DNA of 64,000 bases, from assembly GCA_964187785.1 (NCBI GenBank), contig OZ076409.1, positions 89,714,001 through 89,778,000 of the forward strand, in the 5' to 3' direction. Below the pieces are notes generated by a model that was given only the letters and a program-made list of their open reading frames with translations, was not told the origin of the DNA and did no database searches. Origin of the DNA: Amphiscolops sp. MND2022. Its lineage: Eukaryota. The translations under genes were made by a program, and so were the position numbers. Of this stretch, positions 5,001 through 58,200 are shown one piece after another (position 1 is the first letter of the stretch; every line of letters begins with the position of its first letter).

Positions 5001-8000
5001 ACGTCATGAACAAGCTACTAAATGAAATTCTATGAAAACAGCAAAATAAATAAAACATGAAACATTTCGTTGATTTTGTTCAGATTCAATGTTTGGAAAC
5101 ATTTTAGTTGAAAAACTAGTTGAACTCGCCCTCATCATCACGTCAGCAGCTTTTTGTGGTCAATTGGGCTCCTTGATTAGTTGAAGCACTTTTTTGCTAG
5201 GTCACGGTCATGAAACTATACTTATTAACTTCGTGATAGAATATCCACCTAGCGTAGGAAGTCCTACATAGAGGGACATTTATTGATGTAGCTGATTATC
5301 GTAATATTTACCTTTGAAATTCACGCCTAATATTCAAAAGGTTTTCATGGAAAAAAGCTAGATCTGAAAATAGGCGCTGTGGTTTGACTACTCTCCGTGC
5401 AAAGCAAAGATGGCATTTAAAAATGAACGCTTGTGTTGACAAGGAAATGTTTCCACAGATCGAGTAAAAAACGTCAAATGAGGTTGCTTTTGTGGTTGGT
5501 CCTTGAGTTTGTAAAGGCAAAAAGTGAAAATGTTTTGAAACTGTCGTTCCTGTTCGGACAGGTGATTCTTGTGGATATTTCAAGCAGACCTATTATATAT
5601 AATGGAGTTCTTTCCAATTAATATTTCACACTCGTTTTTCCCCAACCTCACGAGCGAGTGCTATGGTCGTAAGAAGAGCTAATATTGAGTATCATGTCGC
5701 CCGGAGAATGCTTAGAATACATACAATCGCCTAAAAACTCCCATGTCTCTCACTGAGGAAGCGCTTTTCAGAGGTTACACCAAAATTTGGTATCGGCTTG
5801 ACGAAAATATACAGCCTTTCTGAAATCTTCAGTTAAAAATCACAAAGAGCAATCAGGTATTCCCCAGTTATCAGCAGTGTGGGACCAGCGCCAGCTTCCC
5901 GAAAATGATTTGAACAGCCATCTTACCAAAAACAGTATCTGATGTCTCAAGAAGATAATCATTTGGTTGATTTCAGTTTATTATCGAGAAACGCACTGGC
6001 TTATACTTAAAAGAACTTCGTCAAGTTTCGCTATTTCGTAACGTTTCAACAATTTTTGTTTCTATTTGAAGCACGCAGCAACTAAACTGCAATTCACAAT
6101 CTCTTGTCGGTTTCTATTATCCTTTTCGAAAAATGAGTGATAGACATACGGTTGATCTAGAAAAAGGCCGGTCTTACGATGCCGCAATAGTGTTCTGCGG
6201 GAACAATGACTTGACAATTCTAATTATTCTCGGAAGCAAAGATGTCTCCTACCATGAATGGCACAACCTTTTCCCAAGTTCTGCAAAATAAACTGCCGAA
6301 CATTTAACCAGTTGTAATCTTGAAGCAATCAACAGTTTGAATTGCTGTTGTTTCACAAGTATTCTTCCAAAAATCCTTTCGAAATGTTCATCTTTAACCA
6401 GAAACTAATCTGCGGGTTCTTCTCAGTCAGTGATATTATCAGCTCACTCACAAGTTGCCTCTAAAACTCGCGCTTAGAAATTTTAAAAGTTATTTGATAA
6501 CTTTTGAAGGACTGCAAAATATTGCCAGAATCAGTTGGGTGTGAAATGTTTTGTGTTTGGCGTGTTACCGCGATATAATAGCCCCAAGATTCCCGAACTG
6601 AAACATAAACGGATGGAGAGTCTGAAGAATAAATATGCCGGGGTCTCCAAATTCATAAAACTGTTCCATTTGGACAAGACCGACGGAGTTCACCTTTAAC
6701 GGAACACATATTTCTTGTTAACAAACGTCATAAACAAGCTACTAAATGAAATTCTATGAAAACAGCAAAATAAACAAAACATGAAACATTTCGTTGATTT
6801 TGTTCAGATTCAATGTTTGGAAACATTTTAGTTGAAAAACTAGTTGAACTCGCCCTCATTATCACGTCAGCAGCTTTTTGTGGTCAATTGGGCTCCTTGA
6901 TTAGTTGAAGCACTTTTTTGCTAGGTCACGGTCATGAAACTATACTTATTAACTTCGTGATAGAATATCCACCTAGCGTAGGAAGTCCTACATAGAGGGA
7001 CATTTATTGATGTAGCTGATTATCGTAATATTTACCTTTGAAATTCACGCCTAATATTCAAAAGGTTTTCATGGAAAAAAGCTAGATCTGAAAATAGGCG
7101 CTGTGGTTTGACTACTCTCCGTGCAAAGCAAAGATGGCATTTAAAAATGAACGCTTGTGTTGACAAGGAAATGTTTCCACAGATCGAGTAAAAAACGTCA
7201 AATGAGGTTGCTTTTGTGGTGGGTCCTTGAGTTTGTAAAGGCAAAAAGTGAAAATGTTTTGAAACTGTCGTTCCTGTTCGGACAGGTGATTCTTGTGGAT
7301 ATTTCAAGCAGACCTATTATATATAATGGAGTTCTTTCCAATTAATATTTCACACTCGTTTTTCCCCAACCTCACGAGCGAGTGCTATGGTCGTAAGAAG
7401 AGCTAATATTGAGTATCATGTCGCCCGGAGAATGCTTAGAATACATACAATCGCCTAAAAACTCCCATGTCTCTCACTGAGGAAGCGCTTTTCAGAGGTT
7501 ACACCAAAATTTGGTATCGGCTTGACGAAAATATACAGCCTTTCTGAAATCTTCAGTTAAAAATCACAAAGAGCAATCAGGTATTCCCCAGTTATCAGCA
7601 GTGTGGGACCAGCGCCAGCTTCCCGAAAATGATTCGAACAGCCATCTTACCAAAAACAGTATCTGATGTCTCAAGAAGATAATCATTTGGTTGATTTCAG
7701 TTTATTATCGAGAAACGCACTGGCTTATACTTAAAAGAACTTCGTCAAGTTTCGCTATTTCGTAACGTTTCAACAATTTTTGTTTCTATTTGAAGCACGC
7801 AGCAACTAAACTGCAATTCACAATCTCTTGTCGGTTTCTATTATCCTTTTCGAAAAATGAGTGCTAGACATACGGTTGATCTAGAAAAAGGCCGGTCTTA
7901 CGATGCCGCAATAGTGTTCTGCGGGAACAATGACTTGACAATTCTAATTATTCTCGGAAGCAAAGATGTCTCCTACCATGAATGGCACAACCTTTTCCCA

Positions 8001-10551
8001 AGTTCTGCAAAATAAACTGCCGAACATTTAACCAGTTGTAATCTTGAAGCAATCAACAGTTTGAATTGCTGTTGTTTCACAAGAAGTATTCTTCCAAAAA
8101 TCCTTTCGAAATGTTCATCTTTAACCAGAAACTAATCTGCGGGTTCTTCTCAGTCAGTGATATTAGCAGCTCACTCACAAGTTGCCTCTAAAACTCGCGC
8201 TTAGAAATTTTAAAAGTTATTTGATAACTTTTGAAGGACTGCAAAATATTGCCAGAATCAGTTGGGTGTGAAATGTTTTGTGTTTGGCGTGTTACCGCGA
8301 TACAATAGCCCCAAGATTCCCGAACTGAAACATAAACGGATGGAGAGTCTGAAGAATAAATATGCCGGGGTCTCCAAATTCATAAAACTGTTCCATTTGG
8401 ACAAGACCGACGGAGTTCACCTTTAACGGAACACATATTTCTTGTTAACAAACGTCATAAACAAGCTATTAAATGAAATTCTATGAGAACAGCAAAATAA
8501 ATGAAACATGAAACATTTCGTTGATTTTGTTCAGATTCAATGTTTGGAAACATTTTAGTTGAAAAACTAGTTGAACTCGCCCTCATTATCACGTCAGCAG
8601 CTTTTTGTGGTCAGTTGGGCTCCTTGATTAGTTGAAGCACTTTTTTGCTAGGTCACGGTCATGAAACTATACTTATTAACTTCGTGATAGAATATTCACC
8701 TAGCGTAGGAAGTCCTACATAGAGGGACATTTATTGATGTAGCTGATTATCGTAATATTTACCTTTGAAATTCACGCCTAATATTCAAAAGGTTTTCATG
8801 GAAAAAAGCTAGATCTGAAAATAGGCGCTGTGGTTTGACTACTCTCTGTGCAAAGCAAAGATTGCATTTAAAATGAACGCTTGTGTTGACAAGGAAATGT
8901 TTCCGGAGATCGAGTAAAAAACGTTAAAGGATGTTGCTTTTGTGGTTGGTCCTTGAGTTTGAAAAAGCAAAAAGTTTGAATTGCTGTTGTTTCACAAGAA
9001 GTATTCTTCCAAAAATCCTTTCGAAATGTTCATCTTTAACCAGAAACTAATCTGCGGGTTCTTCTCAGTCAGTGATATTATCAGCTCACTCACAAGTTGC
9101 CTCTAAAACTCGCGCTTAGAAATTTTAAAAGTTATTTGATAACTTTTGAAGGACTGCAAAATATTGCCAGAATCAGTTGGGTGTGAAATGTTTTGTGTTT
9201 GGCGTGTTACCGCGATACAATAGCCCCAAGATTCCCGAACTGGAACATAAACGGATGGAGAGTCTGAAGAATAAATATGCCGGGGTCTCCAAATTCATAA
9301 AACTGTTCCATTTGGACAAGACCGACGGAGTTCACCTTTAACGGAACACATATTTCTTGTTAACAAACGTCATAAACAAGCTACTAAATGAAATTCTATG
9401 AGAACAGCAAAATAAATAAAACATGAAACATTTCGTTGATTTTGTTCAGATTCAATGTTTGGAAACATTTTAGTTGAAAAACTAGTTGAACTCGGCCTCA
9501 TCATCACGTCAGCAGCTTTTTGTGGTCAATTGGGCTCCTTGATTAGTTGAAGCACTTTTTTGCTAGGTCACGGTCATGAAACTATACTTATTAACTTCGT
9601 GATAGAATATCCACCTAGCGTAGGAAGTCCTACATAGAGGGACATTTATTGATGTAGCTGATTATCGTAATATTTACCTTTGAAATTCACGCCTGATATT
9701 CAAACGGTTTTCATGGAAAAAAGCTAGATCTGAAAATAGGCGCTGTGGTTTGACTACTCTCCGTGCAAAGCAAAGATTGAATTTAAAAATGAACGCTTGT
9801 GTTGACAAGGATATGTTTCCGGAGATCGAGTAAAAAACGTTAATGTTGCTTTTGTGGTTGGTCCTTGAGTTTGAAAAGGCAAAAAGTTTGAATTGCTGTT
9901 GTTTCACAAGAAGTATTCTTCCAAAAATCCTTTCGAAATGTTCATCTTTAACCAGAAACTAATCTGCGGGTTCTTCTCAGTCAGTGATATTATCAGCTCA
10001 CTCACAAGTTGCCTCTAAAACTCGCGCTTAGAAATTTTAAAAGTTATTTGATAACTTTTGAAGGACTGCAAAATATTGCCAGAATCAGTTGGGTGTGAAA
10101 TGTTTTGTGTTTGGCGTGTTACCGCGATACAATAGCCCCAAGATTTCCGAACTGAAACATAAACGGATGGAGAGTCTGAAGAATAAATATGCCGGGGTCT
10201 CCAAATTCATAAAACTGTTCCATTTGGACAAGACCGACGGAGTTCACCTTTAACGGAACACATATTTCTTGTTAACAAACGTCATAAACAAGCTACTAAA
10301 TGAAATTCTATGAAAACAGCAAAATAAATAAAACATGAAACATTTCGTTGATTTTGTTCAGATTCAATGTTTGGAAACATTTTAGTTGAAAAACTAGTTG
10401 AACTCGCCCTCATTATCACGTCAGCAGCTTTTTGTGGTCAATTGGGCTCCTTGATTAGTTGAAGCACTTTTTTGCTAGGTCACGGTCATGAAACTATACT
10501 TATTAACTTCGTGATAGAATATTCACCTAGCGTAGGAAGTCCTACATAGAG
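2040..10551. repeat. Six-unit tandem array with three length classes (~915, ~1725, ~2324 bp) inside BBS7 intron 3
   Basis: The unit start ttattgatgtagctgattat recurs near 2041, 2957, 5280, 7004, 8731 and 9646. Units are nearly identical apart from defined deletions. Confidence 0.95.
4289..4975 (+). pseudogene. Fragmented SGNH/GDSL-hydrolase-like coding relic within the array unit
   Basis: YDAAIVFCGNNDL (4331-4369, GxND block III), FVFGVLPR (4826-4849) and DGVHL (4958-4972, DxxH block V). Interrupted by stops, and block I GDS is not seen. Confidence 0.55.
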
Positions 10552-12352: not shown

Positions 12353-15300
12353 AAAGTGAAATCGCTCGTTTATAAAAGCAATTACCTTGCACAAAATATT
12401 ATTCCCAAAAGAGTTAGCACCCCCTCGCCCTTCGGTGACGAATCCATTACAACTCAACAGAATCTCCTGTCGATGGGTTTCACCTACCACGACTATTTCA
12501 GATACCATTATGAAGAACAAAAGTATTTTTTTTAATGTTCTGAAGTCAAAGTTTTTGTCCGCTGTCTCGTCGGAAAGTTCTTCACAGTCTGCAACTTGTT
12601 TCAAATGTTTGCGCTCGTCCACAGAAGCGTACTGTTGAGATTTCTCTCTGTGTATTTTGAAAGTGTGACTTCAGCTTTAACTGACTTTGGATTCAATTTA
12701 AAAACCAAAAATTCTCAAATTTGTTGTTCTCAATGTCTAAAGTACATAACAAAAGAAGGAAGTTATTTTGTGATTGGTGGACGTACCAGCTCGCAGATGC
12801 TGCGGTAGAAATGCCCCAAACCAAAGTTACATCTGAAGGCATTGACAGACGGAAAAGAGTTTTGGAAGTCACGACAGCCTGTGCGGAGGAGACAGCTAGC
12901 AACTTTTACACCTTAACATGTAACATGTCCCAGCATCTCGGAAAGAAGCCTTTATTTGATGCTCTCAATAACTTTACCAAAGATGCAGACAGAGACATTT
13001 TCCAATCTGCTCTTCAAAGTTGTATGGGATTTTTCGTCAGAATGTGAGAAAATGTTTTTTCTTGTCAGGCAGTATATCGAAAAGTCACACGAGGAAAAGT
13101 CACACGAGGAAAAGTCACACGAGCAACACCTAAGAAAAAAGAATTTGGCGGCAGTGAGTGTTCCAAACTACGCAAAGAAATCTGCCCAATGCTCATTGCC
13201 TACTATGGTCCATGAGAACAAAACCGATTCGGTGTTTCAAGATCGCAATGAGCTATTTGTCGTAGGACAAACTTGAAAATATAAAACTAGTCAAGTCGTT
13301 CGACGAGCTTTCAAACTGTACAAAGAAGCTCTTGTTATACACTTACATATGTGTCAAGCTGCGAGTTTTAGATGCCATAAACAAGTCTATGTTAATGGTG
13401 AAACGCATTGTAGATACCCAGAATACACTCCAGTAATGAATATATTTTGAAAGAGGTCGAGGTTCAGCACTCCGATGAAGCTTTCGCCTTACTTGAAAGT
13501 CTAAGTTTAGCAAAAACGTTTCCTGAGTACGTAAACAAGTTTTCAGTCACCGACGAGCTCAAAGCAGGACAACGGTGCAACCCGAAAGAAAAAAATGCGA
13601 CGCCATTCAGTCCCGATTTGTTCCTCATTACACGTTCAGAGAACAACCTTTTAATTTGCGATCAATACATTCAAGCCAGGTTTATTGCCAAGTACGCAGC
13701 TGGTTTAAACGAAAAAGCACTAGTCATGTTCAAGCCTCGACAAAGCTCTAGTTATATCATTGTAGAAGTCGATGGTTGTGGACATAGTATTTAATTATTT
13801 TCTCATATATAGCAATAATTGTTTTTCTCATACCATTCTTGAATGAAATCAAACACCTTGCACGAAATATTATTCCCAAAAGAGTTAGCACCCCCTTGCC
13901 CTTCAGAGACGAATCCATTACAACTCAACAGAATGTCCTGTCGATGGGTTTCCCCTGTCGATGTGTAGCACGACTACGTTAGACACCATAATGAAGAACG
14001 AAAGCATTTTTAAAAAATGTTCTGAAAAGTCAAATTTTTTGTCCCTTGTCCCGTCGGAAAGTTCTTCACAGTCTGCACTTTTTTCAAATGTTTGCGCTCG
14101 TCCACAGAAGCGTAATGTTGAGATTCTCTCTGTGTATTTTGAAAGTGTGACTTCAGCTTTAACTGACTTTGGTTTCAATTTAAAAAGCAAAAATTCTCAA
14201 ATTCATTATTCTCAATGTTTAATGTACATAACAAAAGAAGGAAGTTATTTTGTGATTGGTGGACGTACCAGCTCGCAGATGCGGCGGTAGAAATGCCCCA
14301 AACCAAAGTTACATCTGAAGGCATTGACAGACGGAAAAGAGTTTTGGAAGTCACGACAGCCTGTGCGGAGGAGACAGCTAGCAACTTTTACACCTTAACA
14401 TGTAACATGTCCCAGCATCTCGGAAAGAAGCCTTTATTTGATGCTCTCAATAACTTTACCAAAGATGCAGACAGAGACATTTTCCAATCTGCTCTTCAAA
14501 GTTGTATGGGATTTTTCGTCAGAATGTGAGAAAATGTTTTTTCTTGTCAGGCAGTATATCGAAAAGTCACACGAGGAAAAGTCACACGAGGAAAAGTCAC
14601 ACGAGCAACACCTAAGAAAAAAGAATTTGGCGGCAGTGAGTGTTCCAAACTACGCAAAGAAATCTGCCCAATGCTCATTGCCTACTATGGTCCATGAGAA
14701 CAAAACCGATTCGGTGTTTCAAGATCGCAATGAGCTATTTGTCGTAGGACAAACTTGAAAATATAAAACTAGTCAAGTCGTTCGACGAGCTTTCAAACTG
14801 TACAAAGAAGCTCTTGTTATACACTTACATATGTGTCAAGCTGCGAGTTTTAGATGCCATAAACAAGTCTATGTTAATGGTGAAACGCATTGTAGATACC
14901 CAGAATACACTCCAGTAATGAATATATTTTGAAAGAGGTCGAGGTTCAGCACTCCGATGAAGCTTTCGCCTTACTTGAAAGTCTAAGTTTAGCAAAAACG
15001 TTTCCTGAGTACGTAAACAAGTTTTCAGTCACCGACGAGCTCAAAGCAGGACAACGGTGCAACCCGAAAGAAAAAAATGCGACGCCATTCAGTCCCGATT
15101 TGTTCCTCATTACACGTTCAGAGAACAACCTTTTAATTTGCGATCAATACATTCAAGCCAGGTTTATTGCCAAGTACGCAGCTGGTTTAAACGAAAAAGC
15201 ACTAGTCATGTTCAAGCCTCGACAAAGCTCTAGTTATATCATTGTAGAAGTCGATGGTTGTGGACATAGTATTTAATTATTTTCTCATATATAGCAATAA

Positions 15301-17685
15301 TTGTTTTTCTCATACCATTCTTGAATGAAATCAAACACCTTGCACGAAATATTATTCCCAAAAGAGTTAGCACCCCCTTGCCCTTCAGAGACGAATCCAT
15401 TACAACTCAACAGAATGTCCTGTCGATGGGTTTCCCCTGTCGATGTGTAGCACGACTACGTTAGACACCATAATGAAGAACGAAAGCATTTTTAAAAAAT
15501 GTTCTGAAAAGTCAAATTTTTTGTCCCTTGTCCCGTCGGAAAGTTCTTCACAGTCTGCACTTTTTTCAAATGTTTGCGCTCGTCCACAGAAGCGTAATGT
15601 TGAGATTCTCTCTGTGTATTTTGAAAGTGTGACTTCAGCTTTAACTGACTTTGGTTTCAATTTAAAAAGCAAAAATTCTCAAATTCATTATTCTCAATGT
15701 TTAATGTACATAACAAAAGAAGGAAGTTATTTTGTGATTGGTGGACGTACCAGCTCGCAGATGCTGCGGTAGAAATGCCCCAAACCAAAGTTACATCTGA
15801 AGGCTTTGACAGACGGAAAAGAGTTTTGGAAGTCACGGCAGCCTGTGCGGAGGAGACAGCTAGCAACTTTTAAACCTTAACATGTAACATGTCCCAGCAT
15901 CTCGGAAAGAAGCCTCTATTTGATGCTCTCAATAACTTTACCAAAGATGCAGACAGAGACATTTTCCAATCTGCTCTTCAAAGGTGTATGGGATTTTTCG
16001 TCAGAATGTGAGAAAATGTTTTCTCTTGTCAGACAGTATATCGAAAAGTCACACGAGCAACACCTAAGAAAAAAGAATTTGGTGGCAGTGAGTGTTCCAA
16101 ACTACGCAAAGAAATCTGCCCAATGCTCATTGCCTACTATGGTCCATGAGAACAAAACCGATTCGGTGTTTCAAGATCGCAATGAGCTATTTGTCGTAGG
16201 ACAAACTTGAAAATATAAAACTAGTCAAGTCGTTCGACGAGCTTTCAAACTGTACAAAGAAGCTCTTGCTATACACTTACATATGTGTCAAGCTGTGAGT
16301 TTTAGATGCCATAAACAAGTCTATGTTAATGGTGAAACGCATTGTAGATACCCAGAATACACTCCAGTAATGAATATATTTTGAAAGAGGTCGAGGTTCA
16401 GCACTCCGATGAAGCTTTCGCCTTACTTGAAAGTCGAAGTTCAGCAAAAACGGTTCCTGAGTACGTAAACAAGTTTTCAGTCACCGACGAGCTCAAAGCA
16501 GGACAAAGGTGCAACCCGAAAGAAAAAATGCGACGCCATTCAGTTCCGATTTGTTCCTCATTACACGTTCAGAGAACAACCTTTTAATTTGCGATCAATA
16601 CATTCAAGCCAGGTTTATTGCCAAGTACGCAGCTGGTTTAAACGAAAAAGCACTAGTCATGTTCAAGCCTCGACAAAGCTCTAGTTATATCATTGTAGAA
16701 GTCGATGGTTGTGGACATAGTATTTAATTATTTTCTCATATATAGCAATAATTGTTTTTCTCATACCATTCTTGAATGAAATCAAACACCTTGCACGAAA
16801 TATTATTCCCAAAAGAGTTAGCACCCCCTTGCCCTTCAGAGACGAATCCATTACAACTCAACAGAATGTCCTGTCGATGGGTTTCCCCTGTCGATGGGTA
16901 GCACGACTACGTTAGACACCATAATGAAGAACGAAAGCATTTTTGAAAAATGTTCTGAAAAGTCAAATTTTTTGTCCCTTGTCCCGTCGGAAAGTTCTTC
17001 ACAGTCTGCACTTTTTTCAAATGTTTGCGCTCGTCCACAGAAGCGTAATGTTGAGATTCTCTCTGTGTATTTTGAAAGTGTGACTTCAGCTTTAACTGAC
17101 TTTGGTTTCAATTTAAAAAGCAAAAATTCTCAAATTCATTATTCTCAATGTCTAATGTACATAACAAAAGAAGGAAGTTATTTTGTGATTGGTGGACGTA
17201 CCAGCTCGCAGATGCTGCGGTAGAAATGCCCCAAACCAAAGTTACATCTGAAGGCTTTGACAGACGGAAAAGAGTTTTGGAAGTCACGGCAGCCTGTGCG
17301 GAGGAGACAGCTAGCAACTTTTAAACCTTAACATGTAACATGTCCCAGGATCTCGGAAAGAAGCCTTTGTTTGATGCTCTCAATAACTTTACCAAAAATG
17401 CAGACAGAGACATTTTCCAATCTGCTCTTCAAAGTTGTATGGGATTTTTCGTCAGAATGTGAGAAAATGTTTTCTCTTGTCAGGCAGTATATCGAAAAGT
17501 CACACGAGCAACACCTAAGAAAAAAAATTTGGTGGCAGTAAGTGTTCCAAACTACGCAAAGAAATCTGCCCAATGCTCATTGCCTACTATGTTCCATGAG
17601 AACAAAACCGATTCGGTGTTTCAAGATCGCAATGGGCTATTTGTCGTAGGACAAACTTGAAAATATAAAACTAGTCAATTCGTTC

Positions 17686-20600
17686 TGGAAAATTAATTCT
17701 ATTCAACAATATATTGCAAGCCCCACCGTACAAACACAACTGAAACATAGGTTAACAATCTGCCCGTGTTTTACAATGTATTGAATAGATTAATTAATTA
17801 ATTTTAAAATTACGTCACAGTCAGAGTGTAGCGATTAGACAGGCATAGACACGGAACACACACGTGCGCGTGAGTGTTCACGCGTGGTTGAATGAACAAA
17901 ATGAATACATTACCAGGCGCGTATATTTGTGCTTGGGAAATACATGGTAAAGACTATAACAGACACAGGGAGTAGGGTAAATAAAATGAATACATTATGC
18001 AGCACGTTTCTATCATAATGAGGATGAAACTGCACACATAAGCAAAGAAATAGAGTAACAGGGGAATAATCTGAATACCTTATACAACTGGTGTTGGGGA
18101 ATTTCAAGGGTGTGGAATATTGATTTATAACAAAATGCATACATTATAGATCAGCATAGTGAATAAAAATCAACATATAAACGACAGTACACAAACAAAA
18201 GATGAATTAAACAACCGAATACAGAGAGTGCACCAATATGATAGACTGCAATTTCACCTATAATTTCGGAATTTTTGAAGTTTTGAGGCAGTTTGAAAGT
18301 AATTCTGCCGCTCTGCTGCTGCATTTAGTTAGCGAATCTGCCAGTTGTAATTCTGTTGATACCCATATAACTTTCTGGACGGATTTTTCGCTAATCATAC
18401 TTCGTAAATATCCCAGATCGACTCTCAACCGGCGATCACACACAGATGTGGTAGAATATAGGTTTTCTACAAGAGACGCATTATCGGTTATGGCAACTAT
18501 AGGAAATTCTACATTCAAAATTTCGTTGAAAAGTTGCTGGCATGAATATGCGGCATCAATACCCTCCACCATGGCAATTGTTTCAGCTGAAAGTGTGCTT
18601 CTAATTATACGTATAAGCCGCGAAGATCTCCAACGTAACAGGGAACAAGGACATACTTTATCGTCGCTAACAGATGCTAAAAAGACCAGATATCCTCCCT
18701 GAGTACCCCCATCGTCGTAATTGTTAAATGATGCATCAGAATAGACAATAATTGCCCATTTGTCGTTCGGGGAAAGTTTTGAGAAGGTCAATCGGCATTC
18801 CGCGACGGAGTGTAGCACTTTCCTAATTATCTTGTTGGCTTGTAAGAAATCAGATACCGTTCCATTTTCAATCTTACTGCTAAAAAAACTAGTTTGAAAA
18901 GCCAGATCTGGGCGTGAATGCACTGTCAGCCACAGTAATTGTCCAATGCATACTCGAAGACTTTTCTTCTCCGCTCGTGTCAGCTTGGATGATTTTTCTG
19001 ACTTCCTCTGCAGATCAATAGAAATTTCGTTAAGAGCTGCAGCATAGGTGGTTTGGTCAATACTACAAGCGCCATTTCCTTTACGTGAAATGTCAACACC
19101 AAGATATTTACATGGCACGGACGTAATTTTTCCAATAACAAACGTACAATTTAAATAGTTCACCACAGTTTGTTCGAACAGCGAGTCACCGGCCCACCAG
19201 AAATCGTCTACATGCACGGTAAGAACATCGTTGCAGACACTGTTTTCGCGCCTATAAAATACACAGTTATCATACTTCGATTTCACACACCCAGTGGCCA
19301 ATAGTTCGTCGCAGACTCGGTTAAACCATTGTCGGGGAGCGTCGGTCAGGCCATAGACCGCCTTCTGTAGTTTCCAGAGGGTATTTGGTTGACGAGCCTC
19401 TATGGGTGGCAGTAAATACACATCGCGTTTTATTTCAGATCCCTGGAGAAATGCAGTTTTCACGTCAATGCACCCAGAATTCCAATGTGGCCTTGACGCG
19501 AATAACGCTAGTACTGCTCGGAAAGATTCTTTTGAACACGTCGGTGAAACTTTCAGCACAATATCGTATTCAGGATCCTCGAAACCACGCGCAACAAGTC
19601 TGGTCTTTTTCGTGTCTTCCTTTTCACTGCATACCCAGCGGGTAGTAATAAACTGTTGATTCTCCAGGGGTACTTTGGTATAAACGTTGAATTGCTCCCA
19701 ACTTTGAAGCTCTTTAGTTTTCGCGTTCTCGAAGTCTTCTTCCTGGACCGTTGCAATCAGAGCTGTTACAGTTTCCCAATGGGAAACTCCATCCTGCAGA
19801 TCGATTGCTCCTCTTGTGCCGAGTAAGCATTCTGGTTCCGTGTACTCAATATTAGCCCAGTGCTTGTGTATTCCTTTGGACTTACCGGCGCGTCCAATTA
19901 CGCGAGCCTCATAGGTTCTGTCATCTCCAGGAGTGGAAAAGCGTATCATAGCATTTCTGGAGGGGAAGACAATATGTTTCGAGGACTCCACTTGCTGGTC
20001 ATCAGGTTCACATCCCTGCTTAGTGCTAGAGACCTCGTTTTTCTGATGATCAGCTGGTGCATCGTCGTTGGGCGTTCCCTTCTCCTCTTGGTCCACGTCT
20101 TCGGTCTCACATGTTCGCTCTTCGAATATGGAGTGATCAATGCAATCGTTATTTTGACTCAATTGTTTTGGTGACGCTGTAGTGGGACTTTGTTTATAGA
20201 TTTTGAGCTCCTCTACTGTTCGCGCCACCTTCCGAAGTTGAGTGCAATGAATCCTTGACACATATCCTCCTTGTTTGACGACGACTGTCGGTCCTTCCTG
20301 ACCAATTAATGTTGCAGGACCTCTCCAGACTGAATCTCTCTGACGTTTGAAATAAACACGATCCCCTTGATCAAAGGGACCATCATCCGAGCGGGTGTTG
20401 TACCTGAGAGCCTTCTTTATTCGATCTAACGATTCCGCTTGTAAATACGACTGTCTGGTCAAGTGTAGCAATTTCAAATGATTAGCAACAGATACAGAGG
20501 TTGTAACGTTTTACAGCGCCGGAGGCTTATTTGTTACGACATTGGGAATAGTGGGGTTGCTCCCAAAAACAATTTGGTATGGCGTAAATCCGTTCTTGTT

Positions 20601-22665
20601 GAAAAGACAATTTTTGGCATGGGCTGAATACTTCATTATAATCTTGTCGTTAAAATCAGCGTTTGACGAGCATTCTCGTGACTTCAAAAACGTTTCTGTC
20701 AATACACTGTTATGTCGCTCACAAATACCGTTCGACCAGGGACTTTCACCAGGTGTAGCAATTATTTCAACGTCATAATTTTCACACATAGATCGAAACT
20801 TGTCATTGTCAAATTCGCCACCATTATCAGTTAGGACTTTTTGGGGCATGCCATAAACAGATCCCCAGATTTCCAAGACTCCATTTATAATGGTTTCAGG
20901 TTTCTTGTCGTAAATTAGCGTTGCTGCGCTATACCTGCTAAACATATCGATAACGTGTAGATAGTAGACGTCCCTGCCCAGAGTGGTTAATTCATGAAGA
21001 TCCATAGCCAAGACCTCGTTGAAACTTGTTGCCATTGGAAGGGAAGCTACGGGTTTTGGCCTCGCTTTGCCAAAACGAATACAGATATCACATTTCCGTA
21101 CGACTTCATCGATTGCATCAAGTGTACTTTTGTCATTGATGCCCGCGTTTTTCAGAAGTTGTTGCAGCTTTGAACTCGAGCAATGACCAAACTGACAATG
21201 CAATTTCTCAATTTGAGCTCTAGTAATGTCTCCAGTGGCAATAAAGGCTGTGTGATCAGTGTAACCTGTGGGCAGGATTTCAATTAACATAGGACCAGTA
21301 GAACATTCACGGAGGTCAATATGCGCGTCTAACCCTTCCAGTGTAACGAATTTCTGTTTTGTATGGATCACCATACCAGCCTTCTTCATCGATTTTATAC
21401 TGATTAAAAGTGGTAGATCGCCTGGAATAATTTCACAATTGAGACGACAAGTGACAGCACCAAACTTGACTGGTAAGAGAACTTTATAGGTTGCTTCTAC
21501 GCGTTTGTTGTCGCCAAAGACAATGGCGGCGGTTGACTTTTCATGTGACAGGGGTAGCAAACCAGAAGGTAGTAAATTGACATATGCCTTGAACCCCGCA
21601 TCTCCAGCCACCGTCGCTGTACAGGCGGTATCGAGTATGCCAGAGGTTTTACACTCAGTCAACAATTTTGTACATTGCATAGCGAACGTAAGATAGACTT
21701 TCTCGCCGTCTTCATCGTTTTGAATTGAAAGTTTTGCCAGTGGCTGGTCGGTATCGCCGTCTGGACAGTCCTTTGCCCAATGAAACCGGGAGGCACACAC
21801 CGCGCATGACGTAATACGACCACTGCTGTCCGTGGGATTTGTTCCCCGACAGCCACGCATACCAAATCGCTTGCCTCGCGATTGGCCTCTGTTTGTAAAT
21901 GATGATCTTCCGCGACTGTTTTTCCACTGCTCATGTCTGCCACGGTATTTTCCAGCCCATAATGCAGACTCCTATGTCTGGACAACGGGATCAGAGTCTG
22001 TCGAGGCCACAAAAGCTGGTTCTTCTTTGACAACCGGTGCGTTAGAACTACTGGCTGTGGACGAAGCATAGATACGTTTCAAGGCACTCTTCATGGCAGT
22101 GAATTCCAGTTTTGGTGTTGCCGCTAATACCAATTGTTTCTCCTTAACATCTAAACTCGTTGAATGCAGGAGTTTGCATGCAAGAACAGAATCAGATAAA
22201 GTCATCTTGTGTTTCTGAATTCTTGAATAGGCACTTTCAAAGTCGACAATGTGTTGAACTACGGATTTTGAGCCTCGTGTTAAGGACTCGAATCTCTCAT
22301 AGGCCTCAAAAGCCTGATCTGCGCTTCTTTCGCAAATGCCTTCTCCAACTTCGCGAGGAGAGTCTGTAGGCCAGTATCGGCCTTAAGTTCGTCGATAGAT
22401 ACTTCCATGGCGACTTCGCGTTTTCTTCCGTGTAATGAAAGCGCAACTGCTGGTCCTTGTTTGGTCTTCGCCAAATCGGTAACTAGTTGCCATAATTCCA
22501 TCTCAGTCTTCCAGGCATCGAAGGGCTTCTCATCCTCCCATGACGGCGGGGTTTTACAGCTTGAACTGGCGTTGTTTAACATCCTGCTACCATGAGAAAA
22601 TTAATTCTATTCAACAATATATTGCAAGCCCCACCGTACAAACACAACTGAAACATAGGTTAACA
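17686..22665 (-). mobile_element. Near full-length Ty1/copia LTR retrotransposon, GalEa-like, 4980 bp
   Basis: LTRs at 22593-22665 and 17686-17757 (TG...CA, one indel). gttc is duplicated at 17682-17685 and 22666-22669. PBS TGGTAGCAG. Domain order is gag-CCHC-PR-IN-RT-RH. Confidence 0.95.
18258..22582 (-). pseudogene. copia gag-pol with 1 frameshift (~22320) and 2 in-frame stops (21972, 20511)
   Basis: CAVCASRFHWAKDC knuckle, ILDTAC protease, HHCC plus DLHEL/TDNGGEF/SNGICE integrase, TRWV/RLVARGFE/DVKTAFLQG/YGLTDAPRQW/HVDDF RT, YSDASF/LADSLTK RNase H. Confidence 0.93.
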
Positions 22666-23739
22666 GTTCGACGAGCTTTCAAACTGTACAAAGAAGCTCT
22701 TGCTATACACTTACATATGTGTCAAGCTGCGAGTTTTAGATGCCATAAACAAGTCTATGTTACTGGTGAAACGCATTGTAGATACCGAGAATACACTCCA
22801 GTAATGAATATCTTTTGAAAGAGGTCGAGGTTCAGCACTCCGATGAAGCTTTCGCCTTACTTGAAAGTCTAAGTTTACCAAAAACGGTTCCTGAGTACGT
22901 AAACAAGTTTTCAGTCACCGACGAGCTCAAAGCAGGACAACGGTGCTACCCGAAAGAAAAAAAAACAAAATGCGACGCCATTCGGTCCCGATTTGTTCCT
23001 CATTACACGTTCAGAGAACAACCTTTTAATTTGCGATCAATACATTCAAGCCATGTTTATTGCCAAGTACGCAGCTGGTTTAAACGAAAAAGCACTAGTC
23101 ATGTTCAAGCCTCGACAAAGCTCCAGTTATATCATTGTTGAAGTCGATGGTTGTGGGACATAGTATTTAATTATGTTGTTTATTGCAATAATTTTGGTGT
23201 TTTTCTTTCTCATACCATTCTTGAATGAAAGTTTTTGTTCTGCGATTTTTCAGCTATAATGGACGTTTTAGGATTGTGATAGGTAGTACATTTATCAAAG
23301 GTTTACAGTGAAAGTGACAAGGAGATTCAGGCTTAGAAAAATGTCTTTTTTCAAAGAAAAACTCAACGGCTCTCATGGACTTTTTCATGTTTTTCAGGCT
23401 GCTGGGACTTTTCTCCAAAGCACAGAGGAATACTGCCAGGATTTTCTTAGCTACAGAAAGTTTTACTAAAACTTGGCAAGCAAGGTCCCTGAATTTTCCG
23501 TTTTATGAAATAAATACCGATAAAACAAAAATCGTCATCTATATAAATGATAAACGTGAAATCGTCATCTAAATAAAAGTGAAATAAATGATCAAAACCT
23601 TCTGGATACTGTCTGGATATAGTGAGAAAGAAGTGAAAAAGAAGGCTACCGCTCACTCAGAGCTCAAATCACAAACTCGAAGAAAGACGAGGAACTTTCT
23701 CGCGGATATTTAAAAATAACAGAATGGGATAATACCAAC

Positions 23740-28823: not shown

Positions 28824-29606
28824 TTATCCCTTCAATGAAGACATGCCGGCTTTCATTATTTCGTCGACCAGGAGTAAATTGGACGCAATTACTGTGCATG
28901 AATGAATCAACTGACGCTTCACACAGTAGTTATCAACCACTCCGGCTTGCAGAGCATCCATTGCTTTTCCGGTCTTCAAGTCCAAACCAGGGAACTTGAT
29001 AGATTCCGAGCCCAAACTGTCCATCAAAGTCACAATCGACTCCTGGGCGTCCAATCCAGCGTTTTGAGCCAGCACTTTGGGAATGATGAGCAAGGCGTCT
29101 GCAAATGCTTGAATGCCAAGCTTGGCTCTTCCTTGTACTTCTTTCTTGTACTTAACCAACTCTTGGCTAGCATACACTTCAAAGGCGCCAGCTCCCGGAA
29201 TCAGACAATCGTCCTGCATTGCGTTTTTCACTGCACGGAGTCCATCGTGAATTGCATCTTTGATTTGGGTTAAGGTGTGTTTGTTCGGACCTTTGATAAG
29301 TAGAGTTACACTGTGTGGGTTTTGGCACTTTTCCACGAAAGTGAATTTATCTTCTCCCAACACAGTTTCGTAAGCCAGCCCACATTGACCCAACACATCT
29401 GGGGACAGACCTTCGAAGCTGTTGATAGCCTGGCCACCACAAGCAAGAGTAATTCTCTCCATGTTTCTTCGCTTTGCTCGTCTGAGGGCGATGATGTTTT
29501 CTTTGGCAAGAGCGTCCAAGGAAAGGGGGTCGATTCCTTTCTGGTTAATCAGCAGGAAACCTTTCTTGGGATCATCTCCACAAACTTCTTTCTTCAAAGC
29601 AATAAC
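28824..29606 (-). CDS. CCT6: T-complex protein 1 subunit zeta, coding exon 2
   Basis: [16 protein letters not shown]..., [15 protein letters not shown]-terminus [16 protein letters not shown]. Acceptor ttaacag|. The spliced total is 534 aa. Confidence 0.97.
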
Positions 29607-29901
29607 CTGTTAAAACGCAAAACGAAGTAAATTACTTTCGTGTGCTTACAAACTGAACAACAACATTAAACAGTATACTTTCACCAATTTGTTCGTAACT
29701 GAGATGAAAATTATTATTACTATTATTATAAAGACTTCGTCGATATGTCACAAGGAAAAGCTTCCGAATTTAAAGCAGGCATTTGATACATTGTTACACA
29801 AAGGCAGAAACCAGTCAAGGATGTGAAAGGATTGTTTAACGATTTCTAAGCAGTCACAAAAAACGTGTAATTTCAAACACCAGACACATAATAGAAATAA
29901 C

Positions 29902-30723
29902 CTGCTGGACTCTCTCATCAATGAGACATCTTTCCGCAGCCACTAACTTCTCCCTTTCCTCGGCAGATTTATAGAAGAAACCCGAGTTTACTTCGGTCTT
30001 CTCATACTCTAGAGATACATTGCAAGTCAAGACGAAACAATTTTCTCCTTTCTTTGGCATATTAGGATGTCTGGCTCCGTGATCCATCACAATGCCACGA
30101 ACAAGTTGAGTATCTACATCCAGCTTGTGCATCATTTCCATAATTTCCACCATATGCAAATCTAATGGCTTTCCCTCAATTTTTATGGCGAGAACTGCAT
30201 CGACAATTTTTTCCGTTAAAAGGTCAGCTAGTTCAGGGTGCACTTTGGTTCTCAAACTGGTTCGGGCAACGTTACAGAGAGCTTCACGATCTATTTTTCC
30301 ACTCAAACATTTCATATCATCGAGCAAACTCAGGCATTTTTGTTTAGCTAAAGTAAATCCCTCTGTGAGCAATCGGGGGTGAAGCCCTTCAGATACGTAA
30401 AGCTCAGCTTGCTTGATAAGCTCGCCTATGATCAGAACATTCGATGTAGTTCCATCTCCAGTGACGTCATCTTGGGCCGTGGCCACTCGGGCCACCAGTG
30501 AAGCTGTGGGATGTTGAATTTGCATTTCGTGCAGCAAAACATTCCCATCTTTCGTGATTTTGATATCGCCTGCTCCAGAGACTAACATTTTCATCGTACC
30601 TTTGGGGCCCAGATTTGTTCTCAAGACATCCTGGAGGCCTCTAGCAGCAGTGATGTTAACAGAAAGAGCTTGTGCTGCTCTGGCAATTTCAGCCTTGGGA
30701 TTGAGAACTTTGACAGCAGACAT
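29902..30723 (-). CDS. CCT6: T-complex protein 1 subunit zeta, coding exon 1
   Basis: [12 protein letters not shown]..., [22 protein letters not shown]-binding motif, [25 protein letters not shown] are CCT6-specific. Donor CAG|gttatt. 274 codons. Confidence 0.97.
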
Positions 30724-31339
30724 GTCTGAAAAAGTAATCTCAAATGATCGGCAATTTACATAAGGTCTAGACCACAAACAAAGTTTATGAACAAAATTGC
30801 TACTGAACAAAAACTCTAGGGAAACAGCAAGTTGAGAGATCTAACTGGAATTTGAGGAAAATTATTTCAACAAAAAATCAGACGGCATGATGATTTGAAA
30901 TAGCGTCTCCTTCAGAGAAAGCATTGGTCTAGTTGTTGCATGCACGGTCACCCTCGCAGTTAAAGACCAACTCACACTCAATCGCTTTGCAATCTTCGGC
31001 GCCGTTAGGTTTTCCCTCCGCCTCGACCCCGCTCAGCAAGAACTGCACTGGCGGCCGCGAGGAACTGGGGAATGTGATAAAAGGGTGCTAGCGAGTCATT
31101 TCATAGGAAAATGCCTGCCATTTATTAGATCTCGGGCAGTTTCACCGTTTTAGATCTACAGATGAAAAATTGTAAATGCGCATGTCGAATCGTTAGATCC
31201 TATTTTTGTTTCCTCTAATTTGACATTGAAAGCAACAAATATATACGAAACACTACAAATGTAGTAGTAAAAGACTTAAATTCTACTTTTATGTAGATAT
31301 TAAACAGCCTGTTTATTTATGATAGAAAATATAAGAACA

Positions 31340-32065
31340 AAAATCAACAGCAATAGCACTTCAAAAACCTACAATCCGATTTATCATAGCCATATTTAAA
31401 GTAGTTTCGGAAAATATTTTTCAGTTTAGGCTTAAATGAGGTCGTGTCGAAGAAGTCATTCTCGAATTTCGATGATACGAAATTAGCTCGATTAACAACT
31501 CTGTTCATGAAAAAGCGGTCGGTGGACTTCAGTCTTGTTTTCTTCTGAGAAGTTTTCGTGATGAAAATCGGGTGGCATAGTGGCGGGAAGCTCCTTTGTA
31601 GAACAGTCCTGAACATATCGGAGAATCTTTGACAATACATTGATGGGGTGGGCGGAAGTAGGTCGAAGGAACGGGATCGAAAATCAGAGTTAGTCCTCAG
31701 GTGGACATACCAAATTTTTGAATGGGATCGAAACAACTCGGATCGAAATTTTTATAACGTAGTCAGATATGTTCACATACCCCTAGTGCCCTGAATGCAG
31801 GAGCGAAGCGACGTGCCATATGGCCATGCCTCAATGTTGCTACTTGGCGAAGAGAGCGAAGCGACCGAGCCATACAACAAATACGATGAAATTCGACCGC
31901 CTTCCATTCGATCCCTGCAATTCGATCATAAGGTTCGACCTCTGTCCTTTCGACCAGAAAAATTCGACCTATTTACAGCCACCCACATTGATGTAGGTAA
32001 AGGGGGTCGTTCAACTGAAATATCAAAGAAAAGGGAAGCAAATTGAGGGCTAATAGCCGATCCTT
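31340..32065 (-). mobile_element. 3' relic of CR1/L2-like LINE, interrupted by a MITE
   Basis: DDYKDRLLALNLLPFS and RFFMNRVVN resemble CR1/L2 ORF2 C-terminal motifs, and the two parts are contiguous across the MITE. Confidence 0.65.
31646..31984. mobile_element. Mutator-type MITE, 339 bp, with 9-bp TSD
   Basis: Imperfect TIRs GGGTGG...TAGGTCGA. acattgatg is duplicated at 31637-31645 and 31985-31993. Confidence 0.85.
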
Positions 32066-32091
32066 ATAATCATCAATATATATATATATAT

Positions 32092-34550
32092 CCTGAAGAA
32101 TTGATCAATCCACTCTGCGCATGGCAAGACCCCTTTTGAGATGTTTCACGGAAGGAAGCCTGACCTTTCACATCTTCACGTGTTTGGGTGCCAGTCGTTT
32201 GTGCTCAACGAAGTCAGGAAGAAGCTGGACAGCAAAGCACGGGAAGCTATTCTACCGGGATACTAGGGAAATTCTAAGGCATATGTAGTAGCCTCAACAG
32301 ATGGGTCAGAGACAAGAGCACCAAAGGTCTGGGTATCACGGAACGTCAACTTCAACGACGATGCATTTCCTTACCAACGTGGTCCTGCAGTCACCCAAGT
32401 GGAGAGCGAGGACGATGATGCATCTCAATCAGATGTTGATGATCTGAAATCGGGGTCAGATGAACAATGCGAGACCACATCTACGAAAACCCATGCAATC
32501 CAGGGCGAATCAGAAGATAACATCAATCCAGATGAAGGGACATCCAATGTTACAGACAGTACATTAGCAGTGCAGCAGACGACAACCAGATGTTCGGGAA
32601 GGACTCGAAGGGCGCCTCAACACTTCGGTGACTATTTGACAGGGAGAGAATTGGGGAACCTGGCACTTCACTGTGATGCTTTGATTTCAAGCGGCCTTCC
32701 AAGCAATAGAGCAGACGCCCTGGCGGATCCCAACTGGAAAGCAGCGACGGACAGAGAGTTCAAATCTTTGGAAGAAAATGGTGTCTGGGAGCTAGTCAAG
32801 CCACCATCAGGACAAGGCATCATCAGCGGAAAAAGGCATTTTGCTCATAAACTAGATGACGAAGGAAACGTGGTAAAGTACAAGGCGCGATTCGTGGCAC
32901 GGGGTTCCACTCAGACGCCAGGCATTAATTTTCACGACACCTACTCACCAACAGCGAAGCTGTCTACACTCAGAACTGTCCTGGCATGTGGGGTGAAGCT
33001 GGGTATGCATTTCAATCACATGAACATAAAGACAGCATACCTGAACGCACCAATTCAAGAAGACATCTACTTTGAGCAGCCAGAGGGGTACCAAAAAGGC
33101 AAACAGATGATGTGCAAGCTTAAGCGGTCACTTTATGGACTAAAGCAATCGGGGCGCAATTGGTTTGAGTGTCTCTCCTCCCATCTGTTTGAGCTCAACT
33201 TCAAGGCATCACTTCACGACCCTTGCTTGCTGACTCTGACGAGGAATGGTCACAAGTGCTGGATAGTGATCTGGGTGGATGATTTTCTTTACGGGTCAAC
33301 TGACAGACAATTTACCACGTGGTTCAATGACAAGATGAGCGAGCGGTTCAACATTGGCGAAAGCGGTCCTCTGACGTGGTTCTTGGGAATTTCCTTCAAA
33401 TGGGGTGACGGTTCGCTGACAATGAAGCATCAGGGGTATGTGAGCAACCTACTTCGCAAACACGGTATGGGCGAGTGCAAGGCAGCTTCAACACCACTCG
33501 CAGACAAGCTGGATCTGACGAAGGATCAGATGCCAGAGGACGGATCAGATGAGCAACAGCAAATGTTGAGACATGACTACAGAGGTCTGGTGGGTAGCAT
33601 TGCTTACCTATCACTGTCCACTCGACCTGACCTGGCATTCCCGGCCCACCTACTTTCTTGATTTCTTAGCAACCCTGGATTTGCTCACTGGCAAGCAGCG
33701 AAGCACGTGTTACGCTACCTCAGAGGTACAGCTGACGTGGGAATCACTTTCATGAAGTGCGATGATACAGGCCTAAATGGATACACGGATTCAGACTATG
33801 CCAGCTGCAAGGACGATAGACGAAGCATCACTGGTTTCTGCTTCAACGTGGGTAGTGAAGCAATATCATGGGCTGCTAGACGACAAACATGTGTAGCGAC
33901 TTCAACCACTGAGGCAGAACTTCATGCCTTGAGCGAAGCCGTAAAGGAAGCGGCGCATTTGCGGGGGATTCTGGACACTCTTGGAGAATCCGGAGCGACG
34001 ACTTTGTTCACGGACAGTCAATCGTGCCTAGCATTGGCAACCAGAGATGACAACAGCGCTAAGACGAAACACTTTGCAACTAGGATGGCCTATGAGCGGG
34101 AGACAGTGAAGAATCAGTCGATAGATCTGAAGTTTATTGCAAGTGGTGACAATTGCGCTGACATTTTCACGAAGGGACTGGGTAAGACAAAGACGCAACA
34201 ACACCTTGCTCGGCTGTCGGCAATGCGGGGGTATCAAGGTTTGCCATCCGCCTCGCAAGGCGGGAACGATCAAATGATGAGCCACGACCCCTAAGGTTCA
34301 AGTTCCTGCCATATGACATCGCACACACAACTTTTGATGCCGCACATTGATGTACCTGTTTGTGCGATACAACATACAACTCTTGATACCGCACATTTTT
34401 TGTTGACTGACAGGTACCTGTCGCGGTGCTATATATACCCGATGCTGAACCAATTCTACCATCAATTGCAATTGTAAATCCATAAACCAAGTCTGATCAT
34501 AACTAATCAATCTCAATTCAGTTCTTCATTCCTACTCAACCTGTTTTGAA
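32092..34550 (+). mobile_element. 5'-truncated Ty1/copia (IN C-terminus, RT, RNase H, 3' LTR 34232-34550)
   Basis: KTPFEMFHGRKPDLSHL, YKARFVARG, LYGLKQSGRNW, IWVDD, YTDSDY, ADIFTK. The PPT gcggggg precedes a 319-bp LTR. The element starts after an (AT)n tract. Confidence 0.93.
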
Positions 34551-34849
34551 TTATATTTATATATAAAAATTATAAAATGAAGCCCCTCTTTGCGGGCAGG
34601 TATGGAACAGAACAATTTAAGAACAGTTACAATATAGTGGAAGCATACATATTAGGCAGGATCGCCTACGGCAGTTTCAGTTCATTAAATAATGATTGTA
34701 CCGGAGATGAAATTTCTAATAATGGCACAGTCATCAGAGAGGAAAAGATCAAGAGAATTGAGATGAAAGTGCCTGAAATTACAATAATTTGGACAATAGA
34801 AGAAATAGTGGTAGCTGTTCAGCTCTGACGTTCCACAAATACACTTGTT

Positions 34850-35464
34850 TCAAGCTAACCTTCGTGAGCTTCCGTTGAGAAGATCGCTTATCATATTGGC
34901 AATCAAAGGGTTCCCGTCCAGTAAAGGTGAATGAATCGTTTCTTGTGGCAAGTTGGAAATGAAATTCCTGAGGAAATTGTCATTATACGGACTGTTCCAT
35001 CTGCGGTTCCATTTATCCCTGATGAAGGCATTGATGGAGTCCCGAGTGTAAGAATGAGACATATGAGTTCTTTCAAATCTTCTCAGTTTGCTTAGGAGAA
35101 GGGAGGAGAGACTACTGGGTCTAGTCAATGTTTTGACATGCGTCGCCGTAACTAAATCATCTTTATTCACTGATTTGATTAAAAATTTTATTTCAATTGA
35201 AGAACAAAAAATATCTATAGGAGGAATCCCCATCAACACTTCATTAGCTGCTATCTTTGGAGACATGCTGTGTTTCATTATGGAGCGAATGATTCGATTT
35301 TGTACAACCTGTAGGCTTGCATAGTTTCTTTGGGCCCATATCGGCTCCGCATATAATAACTGTGGTCTGATTATGGTTTTATACAGATAGGCTTGTGTTG
35401 GTATACTGAGGCCCCACCTGTTAGAGCATTTACTCTTATAATCTGTTATACTCTCTATAATCAT
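34850..35464 (-). mobile_element. non-LTR retrotransposon ORF2 C-terminal fragment (I/Jockey-group-like)
   Basis: LYKTIIRPQLLYAEPIW...LQVVQNRIIRSI...EVLMGIPPI post-RT motifs. Confidence 0.75.
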
Positions 35465-35520
35465 CTATAGGTCCAAACCAACGAGTAACGTTATTTTGAA
35501 TGACTTCTAATTTCGATAAA

Positions 35521-38500: not shown

Positions 38501-39072
38501 TCTTGAAGAATCCATAGCGACGACTTTGTTCACGGACAGTCAATCGTGCCTATCATTAGCAACCAGAGAAGACAACAGCCCAAAGACGAAACACTTTGCA
38601 ACTCGGATGGCCTATGTGCGGGAGACAATGAAGAATCAGTCGATTGATCTGAAGTTTATTGCAAGTGGTGACAGTTGCACTGACATTTTTACGAAGGGAC
38701 TGGGTAAGACGAAGGCGCAACAACACCTTGCTCGGCTGTCGGCAATGCGGGGGTGTCAAGGTGTGCCATCCGCCTCGCAAGGCGGGAACGATCAAATGAT
38801 GAGCCACGACCCCTAAGGTTCAAGTACCTGCCAGGTGACATCGCACACACAACTTTCGATGCCGCACATTGTTGTACCTTTTTGTGCGATACAACATACA
38901 ACTCTTGATACCGCACATTTTTTGTTGACTGACAGGTACCTGTCGCGGTGCTACATATACCCGATGCTGAACCACTTCTACCATCAATTGCAATTGTATA
39001 TACAAAAACCAAGTCTGATCATAACTAATCAATCTCAATTCAGTTCTTCATTCCTACCCAACCTGTTTTAAA
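35521..39072 (+). mobile_element. Internally deleted, chimeric Ty1/copia with two 319-bp LTRs (35521-35839, 38754-39072)
   Basis: PBS GGTTATGGGACCAG (half-tRNA-iMet type) at 35841. gag start (KLLFSGREDDFPTFLEQFE) is fused to the IN-RT linker, followed by degraded RT/RH. No matching TSD found. Confidence 0.9.
36177..36515. mobile_element. second copy of the Mutator-type MITE (lacks left TSD)
   Basis: Near-identical to 31646-31984 at offset 4531. The right flank is the same as copy 1, while the left flank is copia linker. Confidence 0.85.
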
Positions 39073-39099
39073 TCAGTCTTGTTGGGAAACCATAGGACT

Positions 39100-58100: not shown

Positions 58101-58200
58101 GGTTTCAACCAGTGATCTCTTTCGATGACCACCGGATTAACAACGAAGGAACGATCTCGCGACCAGGCGATCAGTGCAGAGAGGAGGAGACAAACGTAGA
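55129..58200 (+). mobile_element. Degraded Ty3/Gypsy relic with candidate 5' LTR 55129-55452
   Basis: SPWRAQV, FSKIDLKSAYHQ, TAFEVNG-LPFG, FLDDVII (RT) and DEFSRFPF...IHSDRGTQFVS (IN) occur in RT-RH-IN order. The candidate LTR runs tgtagta...tactacg. Confidence 0.85.

Follow-up and report, generated by a model that had tools for sequence, protein, structure and literature searches.

A copia element in intron 3 of BBS7

The 64,000-nucleotide stretch of DNA analysed in this study (hereafter the window) is part of contig OZ076409.1 of the Amphiscolops sp. MND2022 assembly GCA_964187785.1 (positions 89,714,001 to 89,778,000). Its minus strand carries a GalEa-type Ty1/copia retrotransposon of 4,980 bp (17686-22665), which is bounded by long terminal repeats (LTRs) of 73 and 72 bp. 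What is new here is an acceptor-like motif, TTTCAG, carried by most of the short LTRs of GalEa-type elements in this genome. The element in the window is real, ordinary in its coding content and decayed, and is part of a genome-wide radiation with this motif.

The insertion lies in sense orientation, as originally predicted, in intron 3 of the host gene BBS7 (21.8 kb, about 23739-1903, minus strand), inside a tandem repeat of ~1.45 kb; at 415-984, the BBS7 exon shares 82% identity with the gene of Convolutriloba macropyga, against 53% for the next best match, which marks the host as an acoel. A 4-bp target-site duplication (TSD), GTTC, is present at 22666-22669 on the 5' side of the element and at 17682-17685 on its 3' side. 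Three other ~1.45-kb repeat units (13284, 14766, 16218) have kept the empty site, and because of these paralogous empty sites both junctions are independently fixed. The 5' LTR (73 bp, 22593-22665) reads TGT...CA and is immediately followed by the primer-binding site (PBS; 22582-22592), in which 11 nt can pair with the 3' terminus of the initiator tRNA-Met of the host; the 3' LTR (72 bp, 17686-17757) departs from the 5' copy only in a 1-bp indel close to its 3' end, with 0/72 substitutions. It was therefore correct that the repeats have TG...CA ends, differ by a single indel and are bounded on every side.

A single gag-pol frame (18258-22582, minus strand) encodes gag with a CX2CX4HX4C motif, a protease with DTAC, integrase, reverse transcriptase (RT) and RNase H (RH), in this order; the Pfam domain rve lies upstream of RVT_2, which is the copia arrangement. 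With a coding interior of 4.8 kb, the element does not belong with the non-autonomous TRIM and SMART elements, which have a short non-coding interior. The frame is broken by a frameshift near 22325 and by stops at 21972-21974 and 20511-20513, so that the copy is not intact. The 3' untranslated region (500 bp, 17758-18257) ends with a weak purine tract; neither AATAAA nor ATTAAA was found in its last 150 nt, and the poly(A) signal of the element was not located.

The assignment to GalEa was based on comparison with the motif set CX2CX4HX4C, DT[AG]C, KARLVA, DVK[AT]A[FY], [HY]VDD, [TS]RPD[IV], SDAS and ADxxTK, to which the window element responds with CAVCASRFHWAKDC, DTAC, KTRLVA, DVKTAF, HVDD, SRPDL, SDAS and ADSLTK. 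These motifs, the tRNA-Met PBS and the copia domain order bear out the predicted class. The TGT...CA ends, the tRNA-Met PBS and the single frame are common to the metazoan GalEa clade (GalEa1, Cico1, Zeco1, Olco1, CoRex1-2; PMC3587641, PMC5445492), as are the variable purine tract, a length of about 4.5-5.1 kb and the motifs CX2CX4HX4C, DTAC, DVKTAF, HVDD, SDAS and ADxxTK; the 5-bp TSD of that clade is seen in most related copies of this genome, though not in the window copy. One-residue differences are seen in KTRLVA and SRPDL, which are KARLVA and TRPDI in published GalEa elements. The PBS, TGGTAGCAGGA, matches the host tRNA; its departure from the published TGGTAGCAGAGC follows from the different sequence of that tRNA.

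The short LTR is inherited

A search of the genome with the LTR returned five matches, namely the pair in the window, the pair of a second full copy (L007) and one solo LTR. The LTRs of L007 are 78/78 bp and differ at four sites, the solo LTR is also 78 bp long, and both insertions have 5-bp TSDs, so that the 4-bp TSD is peculiar to the window copy. Relative to the 78-bp sister LTRs, the same 5-bp unit is absent from both window LTRs; therefore, the 73-bp form has been copied through reverse transcription, and the minimal LTR is genuine and inherited. Long LTRs, which would have made the window copy a deletion derivative, were not present in either relative.

Between the two full copies there are 179 substitutions. 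In the part of the frame that was scanned, differences are spread evenly over codon positions (57/49/47), with 34 synonymous and 114 non-synonymous codons, and are therefore neutral by codon position. The scanned part of the L007 frame has seven stops, and both full copies are decaying. The window copy is probably the younger of the two. The element had been described as young, but this holds only in a relative sense: 0/72 substitutions are compatible with about 4% divergence, and the frame has already acquired a frameshift and two stops.

Short LTRs are the rule for the GalEa-type clade in this genome

Sixty further loci were taken, 20 from 30 DNA matches and 40 picked from 89 RT matches with preference for long frames. 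Of the resulting 62 loci, 48 had an LTR pair, two (L006 and L041) were delimited in a separate pass, and 12 had no pair. Grouping at 80% identity over 2 kb gave 30 families, and one LTR per family was scored. LTR length ranges from 69 to 172 bp (median 95.5), and is below 100 bp in 19 families and below 80 bp in three; in four family representatives, which have no TSD, the length may be off by a few bases. One copy of the 69-bp family combines identical LTRs with an open frame of 1,444 amino acids, and single large gag-pol frames of 1,386-1,501 amino acids are open in 21/48 related copies. TSDs in the 48 delimited copies are of 5 bp in 32, 4 bp in seven and 6 bp in one, and are missing in eight. 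All five copies of two families (L054, L055, L057, L058, L094) have 4-bp TSDs, while most of the clade has 5 bp. A tandem pair of copies with a common middle LTR (L040/L041) was observed on contig C1 at 51.87-51.88 Mb.

An RT/RH tree of 36 rows was built without published GalEa references, four families being omitted for short RT hits. It joined 26 genome families and five metagenomic relatives in one clade (100/100), separate from five other copia rows, with short LTRs scattered over deep branches. Short LTRs are thus the rule for this clade in the genome, and the window family is not the exception it had been taken for. No relatives of the element were found in viral contigs.

Published GalEa LTRs are longer, measuring 133 bp in CoRex2 and 217 bp in CoRex1 of shrimp and 138-311 bp in fungal GalEa elements (PMC3587641, PMC5445492). 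Our search of the open-access literature found no paper on GalEa LTRs below 100 bp; the shortest LTR precedent found is that of SMART (also FRetro129) of grasses, at 85 bp (PMC3281118). SMART elements are likewise often intronic, no termination signal was found in them, and their dependence on host genes was discussed, as read-through is considered here. However, SMART is non-autonomous and 292 bp long, and its putative autonomous relatives have LTRs of 105-117 bp, whereas here coding elements have LTRs of 69-88 bp. It should be noted that the LTRharvest runs in surveys covering this clade used a minimum of 100 bp (PMC5445492, PMC11889832, PMC8220671) or 80 bp (PMC6238403). Given the number of families below these limits, Copia counts in such genomes are likely to be too low.

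A conserved TTTCAG motif in the LTRs

In the 5' LTR of the window element, TTTCAG occupies LTR positions 13-18 (22648-22653, minus strand), and in the 3' LTR it lies at 17740-17745; it has the form of a host-type 3' splice acceptor and may mark the border between the U3 and R regions (unique 3' and repeated, respectively). The motif occurs in 19/30 family LTRs, against an expectation of 2.0 +/- 1.3 and a maximum of six in 300 dinucleotide shuffles, and the relaxed form TTNYAG in 25/30 (10.7 expected). It is strand-specific, with no antisense occurrence in the 30 LTRs; in flanking DNA, TTTCAG was found in 105 of 1,317 windows of 95 nt. Within the scored zone, TTYCA or TTTYA is followed by G in 23 families, by T in four, by C in one and by A in one, and the variants retain AG and change at -3/-4, as acceptors do. 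In addition, fewer families than expected have an AG within the 20 nt before the motif (8 vs 13.6, p about 0.02). Other clades have longer repeats without the motif in this zone, such as a BEL/Pao element (LTR of 325 bp) and a second copia of the window (about 317 bp), and only 1/15 other, non-GalEa metagenomic copia LTR pairs carries TTNYAG there.

The motif divides the LTR into two parts that behave differently. From the best AG to the LTR end the distance is 42-71 nt, while the part upstream of it varies from 16 to 126 nt over the 30 families and is 18 bp in the window copy. LTR length correlates with the upstream part (rho 0.84) and not with the downstream part (rho -0.08). TTNYAG is missing in 3/6 LTRs of at least 135 bp, compared with 2/24 shorter ones (Fisher p 0.04).

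LTRs by definition carry a promoter. A TATA box was found in one of the 15 family LTRs long enough to hold one, the other 15 being too short, and AATAAA is present in 1/30. The original prediction had placed promoter and poly(A) control elsewhere than in the LTR; the window LTR lacks both signals, in agreement with this, but control wholly outside the LTR is not supported, as the conserved TTTCAG and a G-rich motif are kept inside it. The latter reads GGTGGGG in the window 5' LTR (22629-22635, minus strand), and in the 15 families for which it was scored its GGG precedes the LTR end by 42 +/- 3 nt. The motif may represent a GU-rich element situated 3' of the poly(A) site. As a second tRNA-Met primer site it was rejected, three tRNA segments giving no enrichment over shuffles (mean z-scores +0.59, -0.47, -0.23). 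A stable RNA structure at the 5' end was likewise not supported (z +1.16 and +0.27).

Splice acceptors and spliced leader of the host

Five cis acceptors of host genes in the window, together with the sites preceding the start codons of BBS7 and CCT6, read TTTTCAG, TTTACAG, GTTTCAG, TTAACAG or GTTACAG; the two pre-start sites lie 4 and 2 nt before the start codons of BBS7 and CCT6, respectively. At the level of sequence, the LTR motif TTTCAG equals the host's 3' splice site. CCT6 (28824-30724) and BBS7 (from 25290 downwards) lie head to tail on the minus strand, about 3.5 kb apart, and both, having TTTTCAG 2-4 nt ahead of their start codons, are candidates for genes spliced to a spliced leader (SL), possibly co-transcribed.

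In the acoel Symsagittifera roscoffensis, SL trans-splicing was reported for 30.2% of genes (PMC9911081). With up to three mismatches allowed, the published leader matches the present genome at 2,378 places. At 1,220 sites a GTA donor follows, and those of them that were listed lie in a tandem array on contig C1. One SL locus that was examined consists of ~904-bp tandem units alternating with 5S rRNA genes and has a predicted SL-RNA-like fold. Judging from these features, the host has SL RNA genes. The SL RNA/5S rRNA array on contig C1 starts at 16.23 Mb (L104-L109).

Besides these, 462 dispersed SL copies continue with a base other than the donor. Among 30 that were fetched, TTTCAG comes next in ten and TTTCCGG in eight. 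Many dispersed copies head frames that, by eye from their translations, resemble long interspersed nuclear elements (LINEs), with unrelated upstream flanks (L096-L103, L196-L233). Two LINE-like families exist in two forms, one with the SL, a spacer ending in TTTCAG and the body, the other with the SL joined directly to the body (L196/L214; L228/L229), and the paired forms are 96% identical beyond the junction. We read these pairs as putative fossils of trans-splicing at TTTCAG. Like the GalEa-type elements, the SL-headed LINE-like elements are retroelements with TTTCAG at the 5' end in an SL-bearing host; however, they inherit the whole SL as DNA, while GalEa-type LTRs do not. In one repeat family (L096, L099, L100, L200), the SL precedes its own 3' part in inverted orientation, a predicted hairpin, and then a T-rich acceptor-like stretch. 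An SL initially placed inside a BEL/Pao LTR (L211/L226) was discarded, as it sits about 100 bp outside the LTR. A mimic of the SL in U3 was also rejected (mean z -0.27 over 30 families); the start of the L076 5' LTR has a perfect 10-mer in common with the 5' part of the SL, a single case in 30 that is plausible by chance.

A possible trans-splice acceptor in place of a promoter

Together with the motif statistics and the SL genes of the host, an unpaired 3' splice site of host type close to the 5' end of the element suggests, tentatively and with slightly less than even confidence, that the element with its inherited 73-bp LTR obtains a capped RNA through host SL trans-splicing at TTTCAG instead of from a U3 promoter. 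Transcription would begin upstream of the LTR, by pervasive transcription or by read-through from the host, and the SL would be joined after the AG of the motif, giving a capped RNA with the gag start some 65 nt further on. U3 would then be the 16-126 nt before AG, in the window copy barely more than the integrase end, and R plus U5 (the unique 5' region) the 42-71 nt after it. Initiator tRNA-Met would prime minus-strand DNA, which would switch to the 3' R within R, and U3 and the acceptor would be rebuilt from the 3' LTR. Because the transfer would occur within R, the SL leader would not be inherited by the element DNA, and an SL supplying the cap would explain the shrinkage of U3 to the integrase end. 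The wider proposal, that the whole autonomous acoel copia radiation swapped its LTR promoter for a trans-splice acceptor, making LTRs possible down to 69 bp, is held with somewhat more reserve. If true, a coding retrotransposon whose U3 of 16-30 bp ends in a splice acceptor can hand initiation and capping to host trans-splicing, which would define the minimum that an LTR needs.

The anatomy of the LTR, with the U3/R border at AG, a U3 of about 16-18 bp and about 55 bp for R plus U5, stands on firmer ground than the mechanism, because both leading models (trans-splicing and the Initiator discussed below) put the border within 2 nt of one another. Our search of the open-access literature found no report of a trans-splice acceptor inside an LTR that takes the place of a promoter, the available portions of PMC3587641 and PMC5445492 mention no LTR acceptor for published GalEa elements, and the five searched supplements of PMC6238403 contained no GalEa LTR sequences from hosts without an SL.

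Several observations weigh against trans-splicing. No genomic SL-LTR-PBS fusion was found at gaps of 38-68 or 66-96 nt, although this is a weak test because such copies should be rare. A 31-nt SL on the genomic RNA would hamper the first strand transfer. In Caenorhabditis elegans, Cer1 is likewise an LTR retrotransposon with an SL trans-spliced RNA, but it belongs to Gypsy/Ty3, and SL1 is present only on its 2.4-kb spliced subgenomic RNA, the 8-kb gag-pol RNA being without it (PMC3315495). A branch point was not enriched in the family LTRs (10 vs 7.6 +/- 2.3), and the AG-anchored comparison of LTR parts is biased by its anchoring rule. The base after AG is A in 16 families, T in 11, G in two and C in one, followed by T in 23/30, which also fits an Initiator. 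The LINE-like forms with the SL joined to the body could have arisen by deletion between two AG dinucleotides. Among 80 metagenomic loci, the LTR end was visible in only two GalEa-like elements; one (L122) has a long LTR with TTTCAG 48 nt before its end, and the other (L117) a weaker T-rich GGCAG, so that the motif may extend across the clade and predate acoels. Finally, strand skew, a weak proxy, gave no signal of sense orientation in the flanks (26/47 copies positive, p 0.5). The host read-through originally suggested is plausible; the sense insertion in BBS7 represents one instance only.

Alternatively, the motif may be the Initiator of a minimal TATA-less core promoter with its start at the A of CAG, the tiny LTR being self-sufficient and enhancer-dependent. 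We regard this as the main alternative, though rather unlikely: every LTR requires a start site at the U3/R border, A or T directly follows AG in 27/30 families, the motif is also found in the long-LTR metagenomic relative, strand transfer would meet no SL obstacle, and no SL fusion was found in the genome. The human Initiator consensus is BBCABW. Initiator motifs do occur in LTRs (PMC3601003), but TCAKTY, the form given in that source, is not enriched here (13 vs 9.9 +/- 2.6), which concerns the strict form only, as looser Initiators still fit. Nor is TTCA followed by a base other than G (21 vs 19.4); G is nearly invariant while C varies, no downstream element stands at fixed spacing (the downstream promoter element, +28 to +33, is present in 0/30 family LTRs), and the motif is identical to the host splice acceptor. 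The same motif statistics would also fit a cis acceptor, either one in the 3' LTR that serves to make a spliced subgenomic gag RNA or one in the 5' LTR that is joined to an upstream host exon. Drosophila copia has a spliced subgenomic gag RNA, and copia elements with a single gag-pol frame, such as those studied here, need a mechanism for excess Gag. This possibility appears improbable in view of the 16 open-frame families, which have no common splice donor after gag or protease, the best donor bins reaching at most 6/16 families and lying in RT/RNase H coding motifs; cis splicing to host exons would, in addition, place long host sequence before R.

Slightly less probable again is that the motif serves some other step, such as 3' end formation, integration or packaging, and that the LTRs are short simply because a dispensable U3 has been under deletion pressure. 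The window copy and its sister are separated by eight indels, and in every one of them it is the window copy that has the gap; TTNYAG is missing in 5/30 families, and no poly(A) signal was located; against this stand the strand-specific and position-restricted match to the host acceptor and the depletion of AG upstream of it. The short LTRs might also result from misassembly or mark a deletion derivative; in favour of this, the window copy has its 4-bp TSD and its 1-bp LTR indel side by side, while its sisters have 5-bp TSDs. As regards LTR length, this explanation is refuted by the 78-bp LTRs of the sister and solo copies with their 5-bp TSDs, by TSDs in 40/48 delimited copies and by the open-frame family with identical 69-bp LTRs, and we regard it as very improbable.

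Other features of the window and the genome

The sense insertion places two acceptor-like sites within the BBS7 intron. Intron 3 is filled by two young tandem-repeat arrays, at about 2040-10300 and 12640-23260, whose units measure about 0.9-2.3 kb in the first array and about 1.45 kb in the second. The second copia, unrelated to the first, lies on the plus strand at about 31650-39100; it is partly tandem-duplicated and has three copies of its ~317-bp LTR-like repeat, with a TATA-like box and without TTNYAG. At about 55000-59500 there are degenerate remains of a Gypsy-like RT, accompanied by local repeats, both direct and inverted.

Across the GalEa-type families, the PBS matches the host initiator tRNA over 9-18 nt. 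A pattern search gave 336 matches to initiator tRNA-Met genes genome-wide, and a dense array of these genes starts at 62.05 Mb on contig C8 (L112-L115), with spacings that are multiples of about 213 bp.

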